Below, piece by piece: positions 5,782 to 61,673 of a stretch of DNA of 64,000 bases. The first letter of the stretch is position 1, and every line of letters begins with the position of its first letter. Both the position numbers and the translations under genes were made by a program. The notes beneath the pieces are model-generated. The model saw nothing but the letters and a program-made list of their open reading frames with translations. It ran no database searches and was not told where the DNA came from. Source of the stretch: Camelus dromedarius (taxonomy: Eukaryota); contig NC_087436.1 in NCBI RefSeq assembly GCF_036321535.1, positions 20,772,001 to 20,836,000 on the forward strand. Reading direction: 5' to 3'.

Positions 5782-6587
5782 TTGCAAATCCAAACCACAA
5801 TGAGATGTCACCTCACACCTGTCAGAAGGGCTATTATCAAAAAGAACACAAATGTTGGTGAGGATGTGAAGAAAAGGGAGCCCTCCAACACTGTTGGTGG
5901 GAATGTAAATTGGTGTGGTCACTGTAGAAAACAGTATGGAATTTTTCTCAAAAAACTAAAAGTAGAATTACCATATGACCCAGCATTTCCACTCCTGGGT
6001 ATGTATCTGAAAAAAACAAAAATACTAATTCAAAAAGATACATATACCCCAATGTTCTTAGCAGCATTATTTACAATTGCCAAGATTTGGAAGCAACTCA
6101 AATGTCTATCAACAGATGATAGACAAAGAAGATGTGGTATATATATGCACAATGGAATATTACTCAGCCATAGAAAAGAATGAAATTTTGCCATTTGCAG
6201 CAACATGAATGGACCTGGAGGCCTATGCTAAGTAAAATAAGTCAGACAGAGAAACAAATCCTGTATATTACTTATATGTGGAATCTAAAAAATACAACAA
6301 ATTAGTAAATATAACAAAAAAGCAGACTCACAGATATAGAGAACAAACTAGTCATTGCCAGTGGGAAGAGGAAAGGGGGGAGGGGCAATATAGGGGCAGG
6401 GGATTAAGAGGTACAAACCATCAGGTATAAAATAAGCTGTAAGGATTTACTGTACAACACAGGGAATATAGCCAGTATTTTATAATAACTATAAATGGGG
6501 TATAACCTTTGAACATTGTGAATCACTATATTGTCCACCTGTAACTTCTATAATATTGTACAGCAGCTATGCTTCATTTTTTTTTTA
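5782..6587 (+). mobile_element. 5'-truncated LINE-1 (ORF2 C-terminus plus 3' UTR) with a 17-bp TSD
   Basis: ORF 5782-6183 (MQIQTTMRCHLTPVR...ELPYDPAFPLLG...FTIAKIWKQLKC) is the L1 ORF2p C-terminus. TSD aagtatcgctgcattag (5765-5781) / aagtatcattgcattag (6588-6604). Confidence 0.95.
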
Positions 6588-15454: not shown

Positions 15455-15930
15455 TTTTATTTTTGAAGTATAATCGATTTACAGTGTTGTGTTAGTCTCT
15501 GATGTACAGCATAGTTAGTGACTCAGTTACACATACACACACATATATATTCTTTTTCATTATAGGTTACTACAAGATATTGAATATAGTTCCCTGTGCT
15601 GTACAGTAGGGCCTTGTTGTTTATCTGTTTTATATATAATAATTATTATCTGCAAATCCCAAACTCCCATCTAACCCTTCTCCCACTTCTCACCCTGGTA
15701 ACCGTAGTTTGTTTAAATGTCTGTGAGTCTGTTTCTGTTTTGTAAATAGGTTTATTTGTGTCATATTTTTTAGATTCCACATATAAATGATAACATATGG
15801 TGTATGTCTTTGTCTGGCTTACTTCACTTAGTGTGATCATCTCTAAGTCCGTCCATGTTGCTACAAATGGCATTATTTCATTCTTTTTTTATGGCTGAGT
15901 AGTATTCTATTTTATATGTGTATATATACT
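15455..15930 (-). mobile_element. LINE-1 3' end (cetartiodactyl-type)
   Basis: Minus ORF 15646-15873 (MPFVATWTDLEMITLSEVSQ) is the L1 ORF2 end. ttgaagtata...tttacagtgttgtgttagt...gtacagcatagt is the 3' terminus. Confidence 0.92.
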
Positions 15931-16184
15931 ACAGACCAAATCCAGTCTTACCAGACTAGTACACAAAGGGCCTTCGCAGTCTAACCCCTACAATCTTCTG
16001 TGTGTCTTTTTCTGCTCGTTCCGCATCCAGCCTGTTCTTTAACCACTTTCTGTCTCCATGTTCCTCAGATTGCTGCCTTACCCTCTCCCTCATTTCCTAC
16101 TCCATATCTCCCCCACACCCATTTTGTTTCTGATTTATCTATTTTCATATAATCTTTCCTTTGATTATTGAAAGAATTTTGTCA

Positions 16185-16333
16185 GGGGAGGGTTGTAGCT
16201 CAAGTAGTAAAGCACATGCTTTGCATACCCAAGGTCCCAGATTCAATCCCCAGTCCCTCCTCTAAGAAACAGATAAATAAGTAAACCTAACTACCCCCCA
16301 TCAAAAAAAAGGGGGGGGGGTGAGAATAGAAAG
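16185..16333 (+). mobile_element. tRNA-derived camelid SINE (vic-1 type)
   Basis: ggggagggttgtagctcaagtagtaaagcacatgc...gattcaatccccag has A/B boxes. TSD agaattttgtc at 16173-16183 and 16334-16344. Confidence 0.9.
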
Positions 16334-19221: not shown

Positions 19222-19777
19222 ACATCTCCTCCCCCCGCATAATCCTTCTCTTTCACACGTTCTTAAGGAAAAATTAATGCTCTCTTCCCAGGCTCTATAG
19301 AGGGCACATTACAATAATCCCAAAGTCAACGTCATGAGAGAGAGGATGGAGAAACTTGAAGATAAAGATTAGGAAACATTCCTAATATAAGATCAGTCTC
19401 AGTAGAAAATAAACCAGCTCTAGAATTATTTTGTTAGTCATCAGGAATATAGGAGTAAATATATAATGAAACCCAGCAGATTTCACATTTAAAAAGTAGG
19501 CAGCATCTTACTATTCCAAAATCATGACCTATTGCTATTTTCCTCAAGTGTTCAGAAAACCGTACCCATGGTCCACATGTTCCACCTCTCAAAATGTACA
19601 TGGGTTACATTTAGACAGAAGGACATGGGTCAGATTTGTGGTTTATCCTGCTTACTATGACAGTCCAAGTGAAGGCTTCTGTTTTTAAAGCATGCTTGTC
19701 CTACATAAGTTCAGTCCAAAAAAAAGCTGAGAATGCCGACACCAAGCATTCCTTTCTGCCCTTAGAAATCAATTCTG

Positions 19778-19948
19778 GGAGGGAGGGTACAGCTCAAGTG
19801 GTAGAGCACATGCTTAGCATGCACAAGGTCCTGGGTTCAATCCCCAGCACCTCCTCTAAAAATAAATAAATAAATAAACGTAGCTACCCCTACCCCCCAA
19901 AAACTAAATAAATAAAAATTACTCTTCAAAAAAAAATTAAAAAAAAAA
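19778..19948 (+). mobile_element. tRNA-derived camelid SINE (vic-1 type), well preserved
   Basis: gggagggtacagctcaagtggtagagcacatgcttagcatgcacaaggtcctgggttcaatccccag, then (AAAT)n and an A tail. Perfect TSD agaaatcaattctg at 19764-19777 and 19949-19962, at a TT/AGAA site. Confidence 0.95.
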
Positions 19949-20059
19949 AGAAATCAATTCTGAAGTTACCTTTCAGTGCCCAGCATAGTGCCCTCAATCA
20001 ATATTTGTTGGAGATATGTGTAGACAAGACCATGTTGCTAGTTTCCACAGCCTAAAGAT

Positions 20060-31503: not shown

Positions 31504-32247
31504 CTTTTTTTAAATTGAAGTATAGGTGATTTACACTGTTATGCTGTGTTAGTTTCTGGTGTACAGGATAGTAATTTGATAATACTTGTATATGTATACT
31601 TTTTCACATTCTTTTCCATTTTAGGTTATTCAAAGATATCGAATGTAGTTTTCTGTGCTATATATTAGGATCTTGTTTATTTTTTTATATATAGTAGTTT
31701 GTGTCTGCTAATCCCAGACTCCTAATTTATCCCTCCCTCGCCATATCCCTTTGGTAACCATAAATTTGTTTTCTACATCTGTGAGTCTGTTTCTGTTTTG
31801 TAAATAAGTTCATTTGTATGATTGTTTTTAGATTCCACATATAAGTGATATATGATATTTGTCTTTGTCTGACTTACTTCACTTAGAATGATGATCTCCA
31901 GGTCCATCCATATTGCTGCAAATGGCATTATTTCATTCTTTTTATGGCTGAGGAGTGTTCCATTGTATATATACACCACATCTTCTTTATCCAGTCATCT
32001 GTTGATGGACATAGGTTGCTTCCATGTCTTAGCTATTGTATATAGTGCTGCTATGAACATTGAGATACATGTATCTTTTCAAATTAGAGTTTTCTCCAGA
32101 TATATGCCCAGGAGTGGGATTGCTGGATCATATGGTAACTCTATTTCAGTTTTTTAAGGAATCTCCATACTGTTTTCTATAGTTGCTGCACCGAATAACA
32201 TCCCTACCACCAGTGTAGGAGGGTTCTCTTTTCTCTACACCCTCCAC
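31504..32247 (-). mobile_element. 5'-truncated LINE-1 (ORF2 end plus 3' UTR)
   Basis: Minus ORF 31773-31979 contains KKNEIMPFAAIWMDLEIIILSEVSQ; poly(T) at the left end. Confidence 0.95.
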
Positions 32248-42042: not shown

Positions 42043-42251
42043 GGTTATTTGGTGTTTATATGATTATGATGGAAATGATTCCCCTAAGAGTTGTTCCGTA
42101 TACAGTATGCCTAACTGTACATGGCAGTTCTGACTACTAACATATATGCCTTTGATTTTCCCAGTATTGTGGTGGTGGAAATGATGATATCCCTCTTTAT
42201 TTTCTGGAAGAAATGAGGAAATCCAGGCTGAGATTAACCTGAAAAGTGCTT

Positions 42252-42668
42252 CCCAAACTCCTAATTTATCCCTCCCCTCCTTTCCCCTTTCGTAACCATA
42301 GGTTTGTCTTCTATATCTGTGAGTCTGTCTTTGTTATGCAAATAAGTCCATTTGTGTCATTTTTTAGATTCCATGTATAAGTGATAGCATATGATATTTG
42401 TCTTTCTCTGTCTGACTTACTTCACTTAGTATCATATACTCTAGGTCCATCCATGTTGCTGCAAGTGGCAATATTTCATTCTTTTTTTAACAGCTGAGTA
42501 ATATTCCATTGTATATAGGTACCACATCTTCTTTATCCATTCATCTGTTGATGAACACTTAGGTTGCTTCCATGTCTTGGCTATTGTAAATAGTGCTGCT
42601 ATGAACATTGAGGTGCATGTGTCATTTTGAATTAGCGTTTTCATCTTTTCTGACTATATGCCCAGGAG
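42252..42668 (-). mobile_element. LINE-1 ORF2 end/3' UTR fragment
   Basis: Minus ORF 42441-42644: TLIQNDTCTSMFIAALFTIAKTWKQPKCSSTDEWIKKMWY. Confidence 0.93.
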
Positions 42669-42685
42669 TTTCTGCCTTTATTTTT

Positions 42686-42690
42686 GAAGA

Positions 42691-42738
<48 letters not shown>

Positions 42739-42887
42739 GGGGTTTTTTTGTGTGTGTGTGGAGGGGAGGGAGGTAATTAGGTTTATTTATTTATTTATTT
42801 ATTTTTAGTGGAAGTACTGGGGATTGAACCCAGGACGTCGTGCATGCAAAGCATGCCCTCTACCACATGAGCTATACCCTCCCCTCC
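42686..42887 (-). mobile_element. tRNA-derived camelid SINE (vic-1 type)
   Basis: ctggggattgaacccaggac...gcatgccctctaccacatgagctataccctcccc, with (TTTA)n. Flanking direct repeat ctgcctttatttttgaag at 42672-42689 and 42888-42905. Confidence 0.95.
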
Positions 42888-43745
42888 CTGCCTTTATTTT
42901 TGAAGGATACTGTTACTGGATATAGAATTCTAGAATTCTAGGTTGGTAGCTATTTTTTTTCCTTTCAATGGCTTCAAGATGTCATTCCTTTTTCCTCTGC
43001 ATTTCCTCGTTTCCATTGAAAAATCAACGGTCAGTCTTAGTGTCATTCCTCTAAAGGTTGTGTGCTTTTTCCTTAGGGTTTTTTGAAAATTTTCTCCTTC
43101 TTGTTGATTTTCATGATATGCCTAGGTGTAGTTTTCATTGTATTTCCTGTCTTTAGGGTTTGATAAAACTCTTGAATCTGTGGACTGATGTTTTCACCAA
43201 CTTTGAAAAATTCTTGGATATTATCTTTTCAAATATTGCTCCTGCTCCGTTTTTTCCTTCTCTATTTTTGTCTCTTTCTGGGATTCCAATTCCATGTAAA
43301 TTCAACATTTTTACTAATACCACATTTCTTTATGCTCAGCTTTATTTTATCCAATCTTTTTCCTTTCTGTGTTTCACTTTGGATACTTTCTTTTGATCTG
43401 TCTTTTAATGTAATTATGCTATTTTCTGTAGCTCAATTTGCTGTTATTTAAGACTTATTTTCTGATATTATATTTTATAGTTCTAGGGTATGAATCTGAT
43501 TCTTTGTAATAAGTCCCATTTTCTGTTGAACTTCTACATCTTTTCATCAATGTTGTCCTTTTTTCCCTTTTAGTTATTTGATATATTAGAACTGGTTATT
43601 TCAAAGCCCTTGTGTGCTAACTCCAATATCTGAATCATTTAAAGATCTCCAACCAGTATGTTTTATTTCCTTGATTATTAGCCTCATTACCAGGCTCTCC
43701 ACAAATCTAGTAATTTTTAGATTTATGACAGACATTGTGTGTACT
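42888..43745 (-). mobile_element. Old L1 (L1M/L1ME) ORF1-region fragment
   Basis: tttgaaggatactgttactggatatagaattctag...tcttgaatctgtggactgatg...cattatcttttcaaatatt-like sequence, parallel to the L1 at 580-1400. Confidence 0.75.
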
Positions 43746-44149
43746 GATCTTTAGAAGCTTCAGATGATACCTCCTACCAATGGGATCTCCACATTAGGGA
43801 CTGATCATCTCATTCCAACCTTCATTACTCTGAGCTGGGACTGGGTTGAAGATCAGTATGATTCGATTTGAATCAGTTCACCTTGACTTCTCAGGCATGT
43901 TCTTGCAGGTCTTTTTATTGAACTCCTTGCAGGTCTCTATCATCTTCCTCTTGAAAGACTGTGGGAGACTCAGTCTGCCCTTCAGAGGTTTGAGATTTTG
44001 GTCCTTTGCCTCCTGCTCCCCACTGCTTTCAACTTGGACAAATGTATTGAGGAGGAATCCAACACAGGAATCTGTGTTTGAGGCAGATCCTCAAGTGGGA
44101 CTTTGTCTCTTAAACACCTTGGTACTACAGGAGATTTCAGTTTGCTTTG

Positions 44150-44499
44150 TTTTTTTTAATATATTTTGTTGAAGTATAGTCATTTTACAATGTTGTGTTA
44201 ATTTCTGGTGTACAGCACAATGCTTCAGTCATACATGAACATACATATATTCATTTTTGCATTCTTTTTAACCATAAGTTACTGCAAGATATTGAATATA
44301 GTTTCCTGTGCTACATAGTATAAAATTGTTGTTTATTGGATTTTGTGAGAATCCTCCTGTATTTTGAAATGAGAGACACTCTGCCAGAGTTCAGTAGGTG
44401 TTCTGTGTGATTCAGTGGGTTTGTAGATGCAATTCTTGGTGTACTTGGGGGAGAGGGTGAGCTGTGAGTGTCTCTACTCCACCATCTTGGCTCAACCTC
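44150..44499 (-). mobile_element. Bipartite mini-L1: L1 5' terminus fused to L1 3' terminus, TSD-flanked
   Basis: The minus strand starts gaggttgagccAAGATGGtggagtag...cacagaacacctactgaac (L1 5' UTR start), switches at 44337/44336 to ataaacaac...tatacttcaacaaaa (L1 3' end) and ends in A8. TSD tcagtttgcttt at 44137-44148 and 44500-44511. Confidence 0.85.
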
Positions 44500-46099
44500 T
44501 CAGTTTGCTTTCTAAAAGCTTCCTAGTCCCAGAATTCAGCAAATACACTATGGGAAAAACTAACCATGTGTTAAGATGTCTGAAGTTTCCAACTGTCCCA
44601 CCAACTCGACATGACCACTAAAAGCTTTGCTGATTTCTCATTCTCCCAGTGAAGATCCTCTGCAGGCCAAACCCAGTCATCAGCCCATGTCTAGAATTGG
44701 CAAATCCTCCACAGAAAATTGTCAGGGACAGACTGCTCATCTCAGAAGACCTTTCCTTTCTATGGATTGTTTAATTCTCCTGACTCCTCAACTTTCCAAG
44801 TCCTTTTAAAAGAAGGTTTTTTTTTTTTTTTTTTTGCAATATAACTTTTTTTAAAGTTATTATGGTAGAAATAGTAGAAATATTGTCACCTACTATTTCA
44901 TACCTGGAACCAGAAGACTAAATAAATATATTTGAATAAATGAACGAGTTTCTCAAAAGGAATCTGCAAGAATGTAATGTTATGATATGTGTAAATTATG
45001 TAGCAGAATAATGTTGACTGATATATTAAATTTATTTAAGTTATTGCTATAATTGGCTTATAGTATGTAACTTTTCACTCTATTAGTTGGTAGTTTCAGT
45101 CTGTTGTCATTTTGAGTACAGTCACATTTTTCTCACTAGGCCTTTAAGAACATCTGACTCTGCTTGTATCTCATGTTTTTGTGGATCAGAGTAATTTTGT
45201 ACCCTTGCTTGTTAACCTTTTCATAATTTGGAAGCATCTTGCTTCCTTAAATCTTCTTTTTTCTTTTTCTCTTCTCATCTTGCCCATAGAGTTAAGATCA
45301 TATCTGCCACGATGTGGTCTCCACACGAGATTGTGGGTCACATGTCACAGTGATCATGGTGATGTGTTCTACCTGGCAGTCTTCAGCGGAGCTGGTGAAT
45401 GAAAGGCTCTGTTGTGTGGCTCTGTTCATTTTTCAGGGGTAAACATACTTCAGAAACTTTGAAACCACTACAGCACTTGATGCAGTTTGGGAGAACAAAA
45501 GTGGGGTCAGGTTCTTGACTTAACAAGACACAGTGAAACCTAGAATTCAAGGGAATAGAAGCCAATGTTGGTATTCAGACAGCATTAAAATATTCTTGGT
45601 GGGTCTTATTGAAACTGATTATCTTTTGGTTCTGTGATTCATTTGCCGTAGTCAGAGAGCGTTCTAATTGGCTTGGTGTCATTAATGACTCTTTCCCCTT
45701 CCAACCATTTTTTAAAAAAGCACAAACAAACAAAAGCCAGGAGATAAATGACTATGTCGTTCCCACTCTCAGTTGGCCTAGTTGCTACATTTTCAAGCAG
45801 TGTTCAGTAGCATACAGAAGTTGCAAACAGCTTTAGACAGGAATTAACTATCTAGGATAATTCTTTCAAGCCGTTTAGAGTGTTGTGTTAGGATTCTTAC
45901 CCTTCCGGTTGTCAATAAGGTAGAGCAATGCACATTAAGAAAGTAAGCTAGGGTTTGCTTTCGATCATCTTGAACATTGGATGTGACGTGAAAATCTTGC
46001 TGCCCTTTAATTTCTTTCTACACACAAGAGACTTAATTGGCCTTACTACCCTGTAACATGTCATTGTATTTATGATCATTTGTCTAGCAAACCGTACTT

Positions 46100-60600: not shown

Positions 60601-60996
60601 ATGAAATGAAGACAGTGTTATAATAAGATCACTGTTACCGTATTTGTAACTTTACTTCCCTGGGAGGAAAAGGGTCATCTTCTCTCTCCCAGAGGAGAAG
60701 CTGAGCAGATGCTACTGAAGCCCATTCATGTGCCCTCAGGCCTCACTGTTTCCATGCCAACAACCTTGACTGCTGCTGCTAACGATGATCTCTTTGGGGA
60801 TTTCAGAGGATGGAGTCAGCTCTGCCCTGTGCATGTGGCAGAAGGGAAGTGCCAGGGAATTTGTGCCCCTCCTGGAACTTGGCTGAGAGAGGTCCTGGAC
60901 TCAGGTTTGAGGAGAAAAGTCCTTTGATACCAGAAAGGGTTGGGCCATGAGGGACCCTACAGGCAGGAACTTAGAAGGACAAAAGAAACATCTAAG

Positions 60997-61551
60997 AGTT
61001 ACCATATGATCTAGCAATCCTACTCCTGGACATATATCCAGAAAAGACAGAAACTCTACTTTGAAAAGAGACATGCATCCCAATGTTCGTAGCAGCACTA
61101 TTTACAACAGCCAAGTCATGGAAGCAACCTAAGTGCCTATCAACAGATGAACAGATAAAGAAGTTGAGGTGTATATATAAAATGGAATACTACTAACCTC
61201 TAAAAAAGAATAAAATAATGCCATCTGCAGCAACATGGGTGGACATGGAGATTGTCATACAAAGTGAACTAAGTCAGGCAAAGACAAATATTGTATGATT
61301 ATCACTTATTTGTGGAATCTAAAAAAATGACACAAACTTATTTACAAAACAGAAATAGACTCATAGACATAGAAAACAAACTTATAGTTACCAAAGGAAA
61401 AAAGATGGGAAGATGGATAAATTAGGGGTTTGGGGTTAACAGTTATGCACTACTATATATAAAATAGATAAACAACAAGGTCTTGCAGTACAGCACAGGG
61501 AACTATATTTAATATCTCGTAATAGCTTATAATGAAAAAGAGTCTGAAAAA

Positions 61552-61582
<31 letters not shown>

Positions 61583-61673
61583 AACCTGAAACAAACACAT
61601 CATTGTAAATCAACTACACTTCAAGTTTTTAAAATTTAAGAACTTCTTAAAAATTTAAAATTTAAAAAAAAAG
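60997..61673 (+). mobile_element. 5'-truncated LINE-1 with TSD
   Basis: agttaccatatgatctagcaatcc...(ORF2 end)...gtaaatcaactacacttcaa, then an A-rich tail. TSD gaaacatctaag at 60985-60996 and 61674-61685. Confidence 0.95.

Follow-up and report, generated by a model that had tools for sequence, protein, structure and literature searches.

The dromedary genome contains at least 200 copies of a probably spliced mini-L1, an element of about 350 bp in which the start of an L1 5′ UTR is fused to the L1 3′ tip. Judging from the sequences of the copies and of their parents, the mini-L1 is most probably an ORF-less, SpIRE-like retrocopy of a 5′UTR-to-3′UTR class, generated by repeated splicing of L1 RNA combined with trans-mobilisation. 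It was recognised from one copy in a 64-kb window (the whole stretch of DNA that was analysed), and the original prediction for that copy, a spliced L1 retrocopy without ORFs, is supported by a donor, an acceptor and a branch box in the parent L1.

The window copy occupies positions 44149-44499 on the minus strand, measures 350 bp, lacks the coding genes of L1 and consists of 163 bp of L1 5′ UTR followed directly by the L1 3′ tip and an A8 tail. From the 5′ end to the 3′ end of the element, its features are (the slash in the junction marks the break):

44500-44511, no strand: target-site duplication (TSD) at the 5′ end of the element, 12-bp exact direct repeat
44482-44491, minus strand: GCCAAGATGG motif near the 5′ end, conserved across the family
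44337-44499, minus strand: exon 1, the first 163 bp of the parent L1 5′ UTR, up to the predicted splice donor
44336-44337, minus strand: predicted splice junction, family consensus ...AAAATCCG/ATAAAC...
44158-44336, minus strand: exon 2, the last ~180 bp of the parent L1 3′ UTR, directly after the YAG acceptor
44150-44157, minus strand: residual poly(A), A8
44137-44148, no strand: TSD at the 3′ end of the element, exact 12-bp match to 44500-44511

The earlier reading of this stretch as a single insertion bounded by a TSD at an endonuclease-type site (TTCT/AA) holds, with the exact 12-bp repeat becoming 14 bp with one mismatch when extended (to 44513). The bipartite L1 structure that had been proposed is likewise upheld, as 44339-44491 match the start of the parent element L100 at 87% over 153 bp (E 1e-47), exon 1 has a mean identity of 88% to 24 unspliced copies, and exon 2 is 90% identical to the L091 3′ end and 83% identical to the L100 3′ end. 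Exon 1 corresponds to about a tenth of the ~1.6-kb parent 5′ UTR and includes the GCCAAGATGG motif, which is presumably of YY1 type. At the junction of the window copy the consensus CpG has decayed to CA, this copy carries a mutation in the polyadenylation signal seen in the family consensus, and the longest ATG frame of the mini-L1 is 16 codons. The predicted secondary structure was not unusual (z +1.04), the 60 longest of the 86 stop-free frames of at least 85 aa in the host region had no Pfam matches, and no relative of the 5′ half was found elsewhere within the window. Words from the insertion were present at 0.79-0.85 in 14 sequencing runs from two organisms, one possibly the source sample, and sampled element words were present in RNA runs at 0.24-0.39 in five and at 0.09 in one, values that are uninformative on expression or on the junction.

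The window has three L1 3′ ends with a position equivalent to the junction. As had been noted from the sequence, AG precedes this position in the two copies at about 15.6 kb and 61.5 kb; in the remaining one, at about 31.7 kb, the spot is affected by a small deletion. All three were ruled out as parents because they share only 68-74% identity with the mini-L1 tail and belong to other subfamilies, and the TACTAAC box of the true parent (see below) is missing from the window L1 copies. The window further contains older L1 3′-region fragments, mutually 70-83% alike (5786-6494, 15457-15917, 31507-32244, 42251-42669 and 60995-61634), and three copies of another short interspersed repeat that are 76-83% alike (16184-16299, 19766-19958 and 42706-42899).

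The parent was identified with a motif formed by the end of the 5′ half followed by GT, which is present at 30 loci: three minis with G at +1 and 27 long unspliced elements that run on past the donor into ~1.4 kb more of 5′ UTR. Nine of the long copies were traced downstream. Two reach ORF2, L032 with a match to the human ORF2p endonuclease (E 2e-18) and L033 by its translation and a weak Pfam match, while L055 jumps from the 5′ UTR into ORF2-like sequence and matches ORF2p residues 780-878 just 2.5 kb past the donor. Another five run into the tail of the mini-L1 and terminate there within ~3.2 kb; ORF1 was confirmed for two of these. The ninth copy terminates in unrelated DNA. Remnants of ORF1 occur in the longer relatives L039/L091 and L100, and for the parent L1 family both ORF1 and ORF2 were found in cis. 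Because the long copies continue into L1 coding sequence, the 5′ half of the mini-L1 represents the start of an L1 5′ UTR, and full L1 and HAL1-like elements are both possible sources.

The HAL1-like elements constitute a ~3.2-kb family with a 5′ UTR, ORF1, a spacer and an L1 3′ end, without ORF2, and have both ends in common with the mini-L1. One ORF1-only junction of this family recurs in 19 of 39 other matches. Members include L039 and L091 (G000:C2, ~61.213-61.216 Mb) and L057/L099, and one HAL1-like copy is located ~120 kb beyond the window on the same contig. Internal shortening was detected in six of the nine traced long copies (including L040/L095, L053/L100, L058/L098 and L055), with junctions that are all different; in L040 the spacer is joined to nearly the 3′ position used by the mini-L1 via a 9-base microhomology. 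Several other arrangements were encountered: exon 1 plus an A-rich tract just past the donor and then a TSD (L050), a retrocopy whose end coincides with the A-rich tract inside the 5′ UTR; a parent-type 3′ end in the opposite orientation ~1.1 kb past the donor with its 5′ start missing (L046), possibly an inversion-type insertion; a 5′-truncated 3′ tip of ~75 bp from this family, flanked by a separate TSD and nested in the HAL1-like copy (L091:5930-6005); and another L1 3′ end type without the branch-box region (L008:685-842 and the L025 flank), which has perhaps lost the acceptor context.

Splicing as the origin of the junction is well supported by the parent sequences, which were compared with the consensus sequences for splice donors, branch points and acceptors. 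At the 5′ break the parent reads CCG/GTAAGA, placing the GT expected of a spliced origin exactly at the breakpoint. GTAAGA follows the break in 21 of the 27 unspliced loci, which had been retrieved by a GT-selected search, and the unspliced motif with +1 left free had 110 exact matches (control, 0), with G in 93 of 100 among the matches listed. On the 3′ side the comparison is based on six parent-type 3′ ends, four of which have TACTAAC, then 17 bases without AG, and then YAG/ATAAAC, an arrangement that puts the branch A at -19 and makes the junction the first AG further downstream; one of these four has a mutated AG, and the two exceptions are a microsatellite expansion and a deletion. TACTAAC occurs once in the 3.3-kb element L100. 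The pyrimidine tract, which had been held against the acceptor, is of poor quality as stated, although the TACTAAC box is present in the true parent. A crude 9-position count gives the donor a score of only 5-7, and it does not come out as the top GT of the element. Among the junction matches listed, the +1 base is A in 91 of 100, which therefore break exactly at splice sites, outside the TAA microhomology. The +1 base is G in 7 of 100, as would be expected from a jump within the TAA common to both sides, but this 7% is not clearly higher than the background A-to-G rate of 4.1% at ApT sites (p 0.11). The two break regions have short look-alike words in common (AAAAT/AAAAY, G and TAA). No second recurring exon was found among 63 matches for other exons on the same acceptor, a weak result given that the filter sees a minority of exon ends.

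A 35-base acceptor motif matches 1304 L1 3′ ends genome-wide. Among the 100 of these matches listed, all from contig C1, CTAAC is combined with the tail letter T in 55, G in 25 and A in one, and CAAAC with G in 18 and T in one; CTAAC is therefore present in 55 of 56 T-tail ends and G in 18 of 19 CAAAC ends (Fisher p 3e-7). The minis have T at this tail letter in 53 of 57 cases and G in two. The distribution fits a series from CAAAC+G through CTAAC+G to CTAAC+T, a putative order in which the branch box would have been gained before the minis arose, and the A-to-T change from CAAAC to CTAAC upstream of the AG would have licensed the acceptor. The CTAAC+G intermediate subfamily (25 of the 100 matches listed) possesses the acceptor and contributed few minis, indicating that the branch box alone is insufficient and that the donor or the 5′ UTR must matter too. 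The CAAAC-to-CTAAC step provides a one-base, testable cause.

Many ORF-less copies with an identical junction and independent TSDs, as anticipated, are present in the genome. A 25-base junction motif has 202 matches genome-wide at ≤2 mismatches, 60 of them exact (reversed control, 0), a 20-base junction motif has 129 exact matches, and the copy number corrected for capture rate is estimated at ~240-440. All 40 scored genome matches (39 and the window copy) span the entire element at 87-100%, and 30 fetched loci align end to end with unrelated flanks. A TSD was detected at 29 of 48 scored loci compared with 0-4 in five shuffled pairings, the scored loci being drawn from 57 distinct loci of which nine were left out for a missing 5′ anchor motif. 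Among the 57 loci no flanks are common to different minis, and the closest pair has 94.5% identity. The loci were selected because they resemble either the window copy or the junction, and their uniformity is therefore partly a product of selection, whereas the absolute counts are unaffected. Possible tandem duplications within minis were observed at two places: two junction motifs are 169 bp apart at one (G000:C3:91331947 and 91332116), and at the other a junction motif follows a donor-type motif at a distance of 135 bp (G000:C21:15991189 and 15991324).

The minis closely mirror the diversity of their parents. No fixed difference between minis and parents was found in exon 1 across 57 minis, exon 1 non-CpG divergence is 0.068 for 27 minis and 0.065 for 24 parents, and identities are 0.870 between minis, 0.865 between minis and parents and 0.860 between parents. 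The minis form haplotypes that link the 5′ start and the tail (e.g., positions 15 and 271, p 2e-5), and both tail allele sets also occur in long elements (five and one of the six parent-type 3′ ends). A tree of 54 of the 57 rows is mostly a star, with five supported (starred) inner branches, for which the bootstrap is not settled. Two small clusters were apparent, with seven pairs sharing at least five private variants compared with 0.46 expected by permutation. The strongest (L013, L020, L065 and L070) has five tail variants in common, and a motif with three of these has 40 genome matches; of the 34 on contigs covered by the junction matches listed, only two fall at a listed mini junction, whereas 30-53% would be expected if all were minis (p ≤6e-4). 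As the cluster variants lie mostly outside mini junctions, they belong to an L1 subfamily. The L066/L073 cluster has five private variants in common. The simplest reading of these sequence patterns is many independent splicing and insertion events from at least three sources, and limited secondary copying of minis may have occurred. With a neutral rate near 2-2.5 per billion years, the divergence of 6.5-7% corresponds to an age of roughly 25-35 million years for the minis.

The original prediction had also suggested that many copies with one junction would constitute a Pol II-driven SINE-like family, in which one or a few spliced founders were transcribed and recopied, as with Bov-A from BovB. 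The evidence leans against such a lineage propagating by itself, and this explanation is now unlikely. A copy number that is high for an ORF-less RNA, the retention of the promoter start and the 3′ end, the inner branches of the tree and the excess of pairs with shared private variants would all be in keeping with it, but the minis have no fixed change of their own, their divergence equals that of the parents, their haplotypes are common to the long elements, and the variants of the best cluster are mostly in non-mini ends. Neither younger copies nor common flanks occur. A further point against a family driven by its own promoter is that just ~10% of the 5′ UTR is retained in the mini-L1; according to PMC5860796, promoter activity is lost in human SpIREs retaining 97 nt.

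Two explanations would dispense with the spliceosome. Recurrent template jumping during reverse transcription (or repair) between look-alike spots is very unlikely: short words are common to both breaks, G is found at +1 in a few of the listed junctions, and the family has many other internal deletions, some at visible microhomologies such as that of L040, but 91 of the 100 listed junctions break at a 1-nt homology exactly at GT and AG, the sole TACTAAC in the element is at the canonical distance, and the junction of the mini-L1 recurs in at least three haplotypes while those of the other deletions differ. The least credible explanation is a single DNA-level deletion in one L1 copy that was then amplified from that master. 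The HAL1-like family, with one junction in nearly half of the other matches, resembles such a product, but one master cannot yield several parent haplotypes at both ends, and haplotype mirroring largely refutes this origin for the minis.

For repeated splicing with trans-mobilisation, the favoured reading, the parent L1 and HAL1-like elements would be transcribed from the internal promoter, and the spliceosome would link a donor that lies ~165 nt into the 5′ UTR with an acceptor located ~180 nt ahead of the poly(A) site and thereby excise an intron of ~2.8 kb (HAL1-like source) or the entire coding region (full L1). The resulting ~350-nt polyadenylated non-coding RNA would be inserted through target-primed reverse transcription by L1 proteins from another RNA, in hundreds of events from several successive parent subfamilies that would have ended when the parent stopped, with the copies themselves as dead ends. 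It is conceivable, though doubtful, that the mini-L1 was an L1-born parasite of L1, in which the one-base gain of a perfect branch point caused the lineage to splice its RNA into a 350-nt ORF-less form that captured L1 proteins far better than ordinary mRNAs do, and which would be the first ORF-less bipartite L1-clade family. Capture might then have occurred via splicing of an RNA already carrying ORF2p at its tail, or there might have been some secondary copying, and the cost may have shaped the turnover of the parent L1 lineage.

Spliced and unspliced 5′ junctions number 129 and 110, respectively, so that the spliced form accounts for 54% of the sum and the class is as frequent as unspliced 5′ ends; human SpIREs are reported at 131 of 6,609 full-length L1s (~2%; PMC5860796). 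Part of the excess over human SpIREs is expected because a 350-nt RNA is seldom truncated. Long copies also appear to have been lost more outside the presumed X, as contig C37, the presumed X with 5% of the genome, accounts for at least 20 of the 100 unspliced matches listed compared with 7 of the 60 exact spliced junctions (p 0.02-0.2). Measured against the family's full set of L1 3′ ends, minis probably amount to a few percent, based on the acceptor-motif matches, which is still a high share for an RNA borrowing both proteins. As the mini-L1 RNA is non-coding, its hundreds of copies offer a natural measure of trans-mobilisation relative to L1 cis-preference.

The mini-L1 was ruled out as a SINE, having 0 tRNA genes, 0 Rfam matches at E≤1 and an L1 5′ UTR as its head, and as a HAL1, having no ORF1. 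No description of the element was found in literature listings and the papers cited here; a human 5′UTR-to-3′-end retrocopy or an alpaca HAL1 entry may be described in Belancio 2006/2008 and Bao and Jurka 2010. In a survey of camel TEs (PMC8605555), the passages covered contain neither ‘splic’ nor ‘HAL1’, and its supplementary libraries may contain a consensus. Repbase contains L1-2_Vpa according to PMC6726744. The novelty of the family is provisional and relative to the literature covered.

Like the SpIREs (spliced integrated retrotransposed elements; Larson et al. 2018, PMC5860796), the mini-L1 is apparently a retrocopy of spliced L1 RNA with a 5′ UTR donor, the hallmarks of L1 insertion, recurrence across subfamilies, a new splice site arising from L1 sequence change and a probable fate as a dead end. 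It has the L1 GT donor-AG acceptor junction, the TSD, endonuclease site and poly(A), and the derivation from several L1 subfamilies by which SpIREs are defined. The human classes given in that account are intra-5′UTR or 5′UTR/ORF1, whereas the acceptor of the mini-L1 is in the 3′ UTR, ~180 nt from the end, which leaves a product of ~350 nt that has lost both ORFs and ~90% of the promoter. The mini-L1 is best read as a further, third SpIRE class, belonging to neither of the described ones, which would extend spliced L1 retrocopies from two human classes to an ORF-less 5′UTR-to-3′UTR class in a non-primate genome.

The mini-L1 also resembles the bipartite ORF-less non-autonomous LINEs, such as Bov-A, RIME, NARTc and Vingi-derived elements (Kojima 2018, PMC5786205), in having just the LINE 5′ and 3′ ends, no ORF, no Pol III head and many copies. 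The sources listed there are only RTE, Ingi, Vingi and R2, with internal deletion as the origin, whereas the mini-L1 is derived from L1, is seemingly made by splicing and probably did not propagate independently. It would fill a gap, as no ORF-less bipartite L1 derivative is in that list, with splicing as a route to such a structure; whether spliced products can found a Pol II SINE-like lineage becomes testable, and here they apparently did not. HAL1 is likewise a non-autonomous L1 derivative with both ends, but it keeps ORF1 and the full 5′ UTR (PMC5786205, PMC13756887), neither of which is kept by the mini-L1, and the HAL1-like ~3.2-kb family may be one source of the minis. In human cells, L1 splice products that lack ORFs have been described at the RNA level (PMC3091869). 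With other spliced, polyadenylated Pol II RNAs that are trans-mobilised, the mini-L1 would have this route in common; it differs in that its source would be the L1 RNA itself and in that the product has been fixed hundreds of times at one junction.
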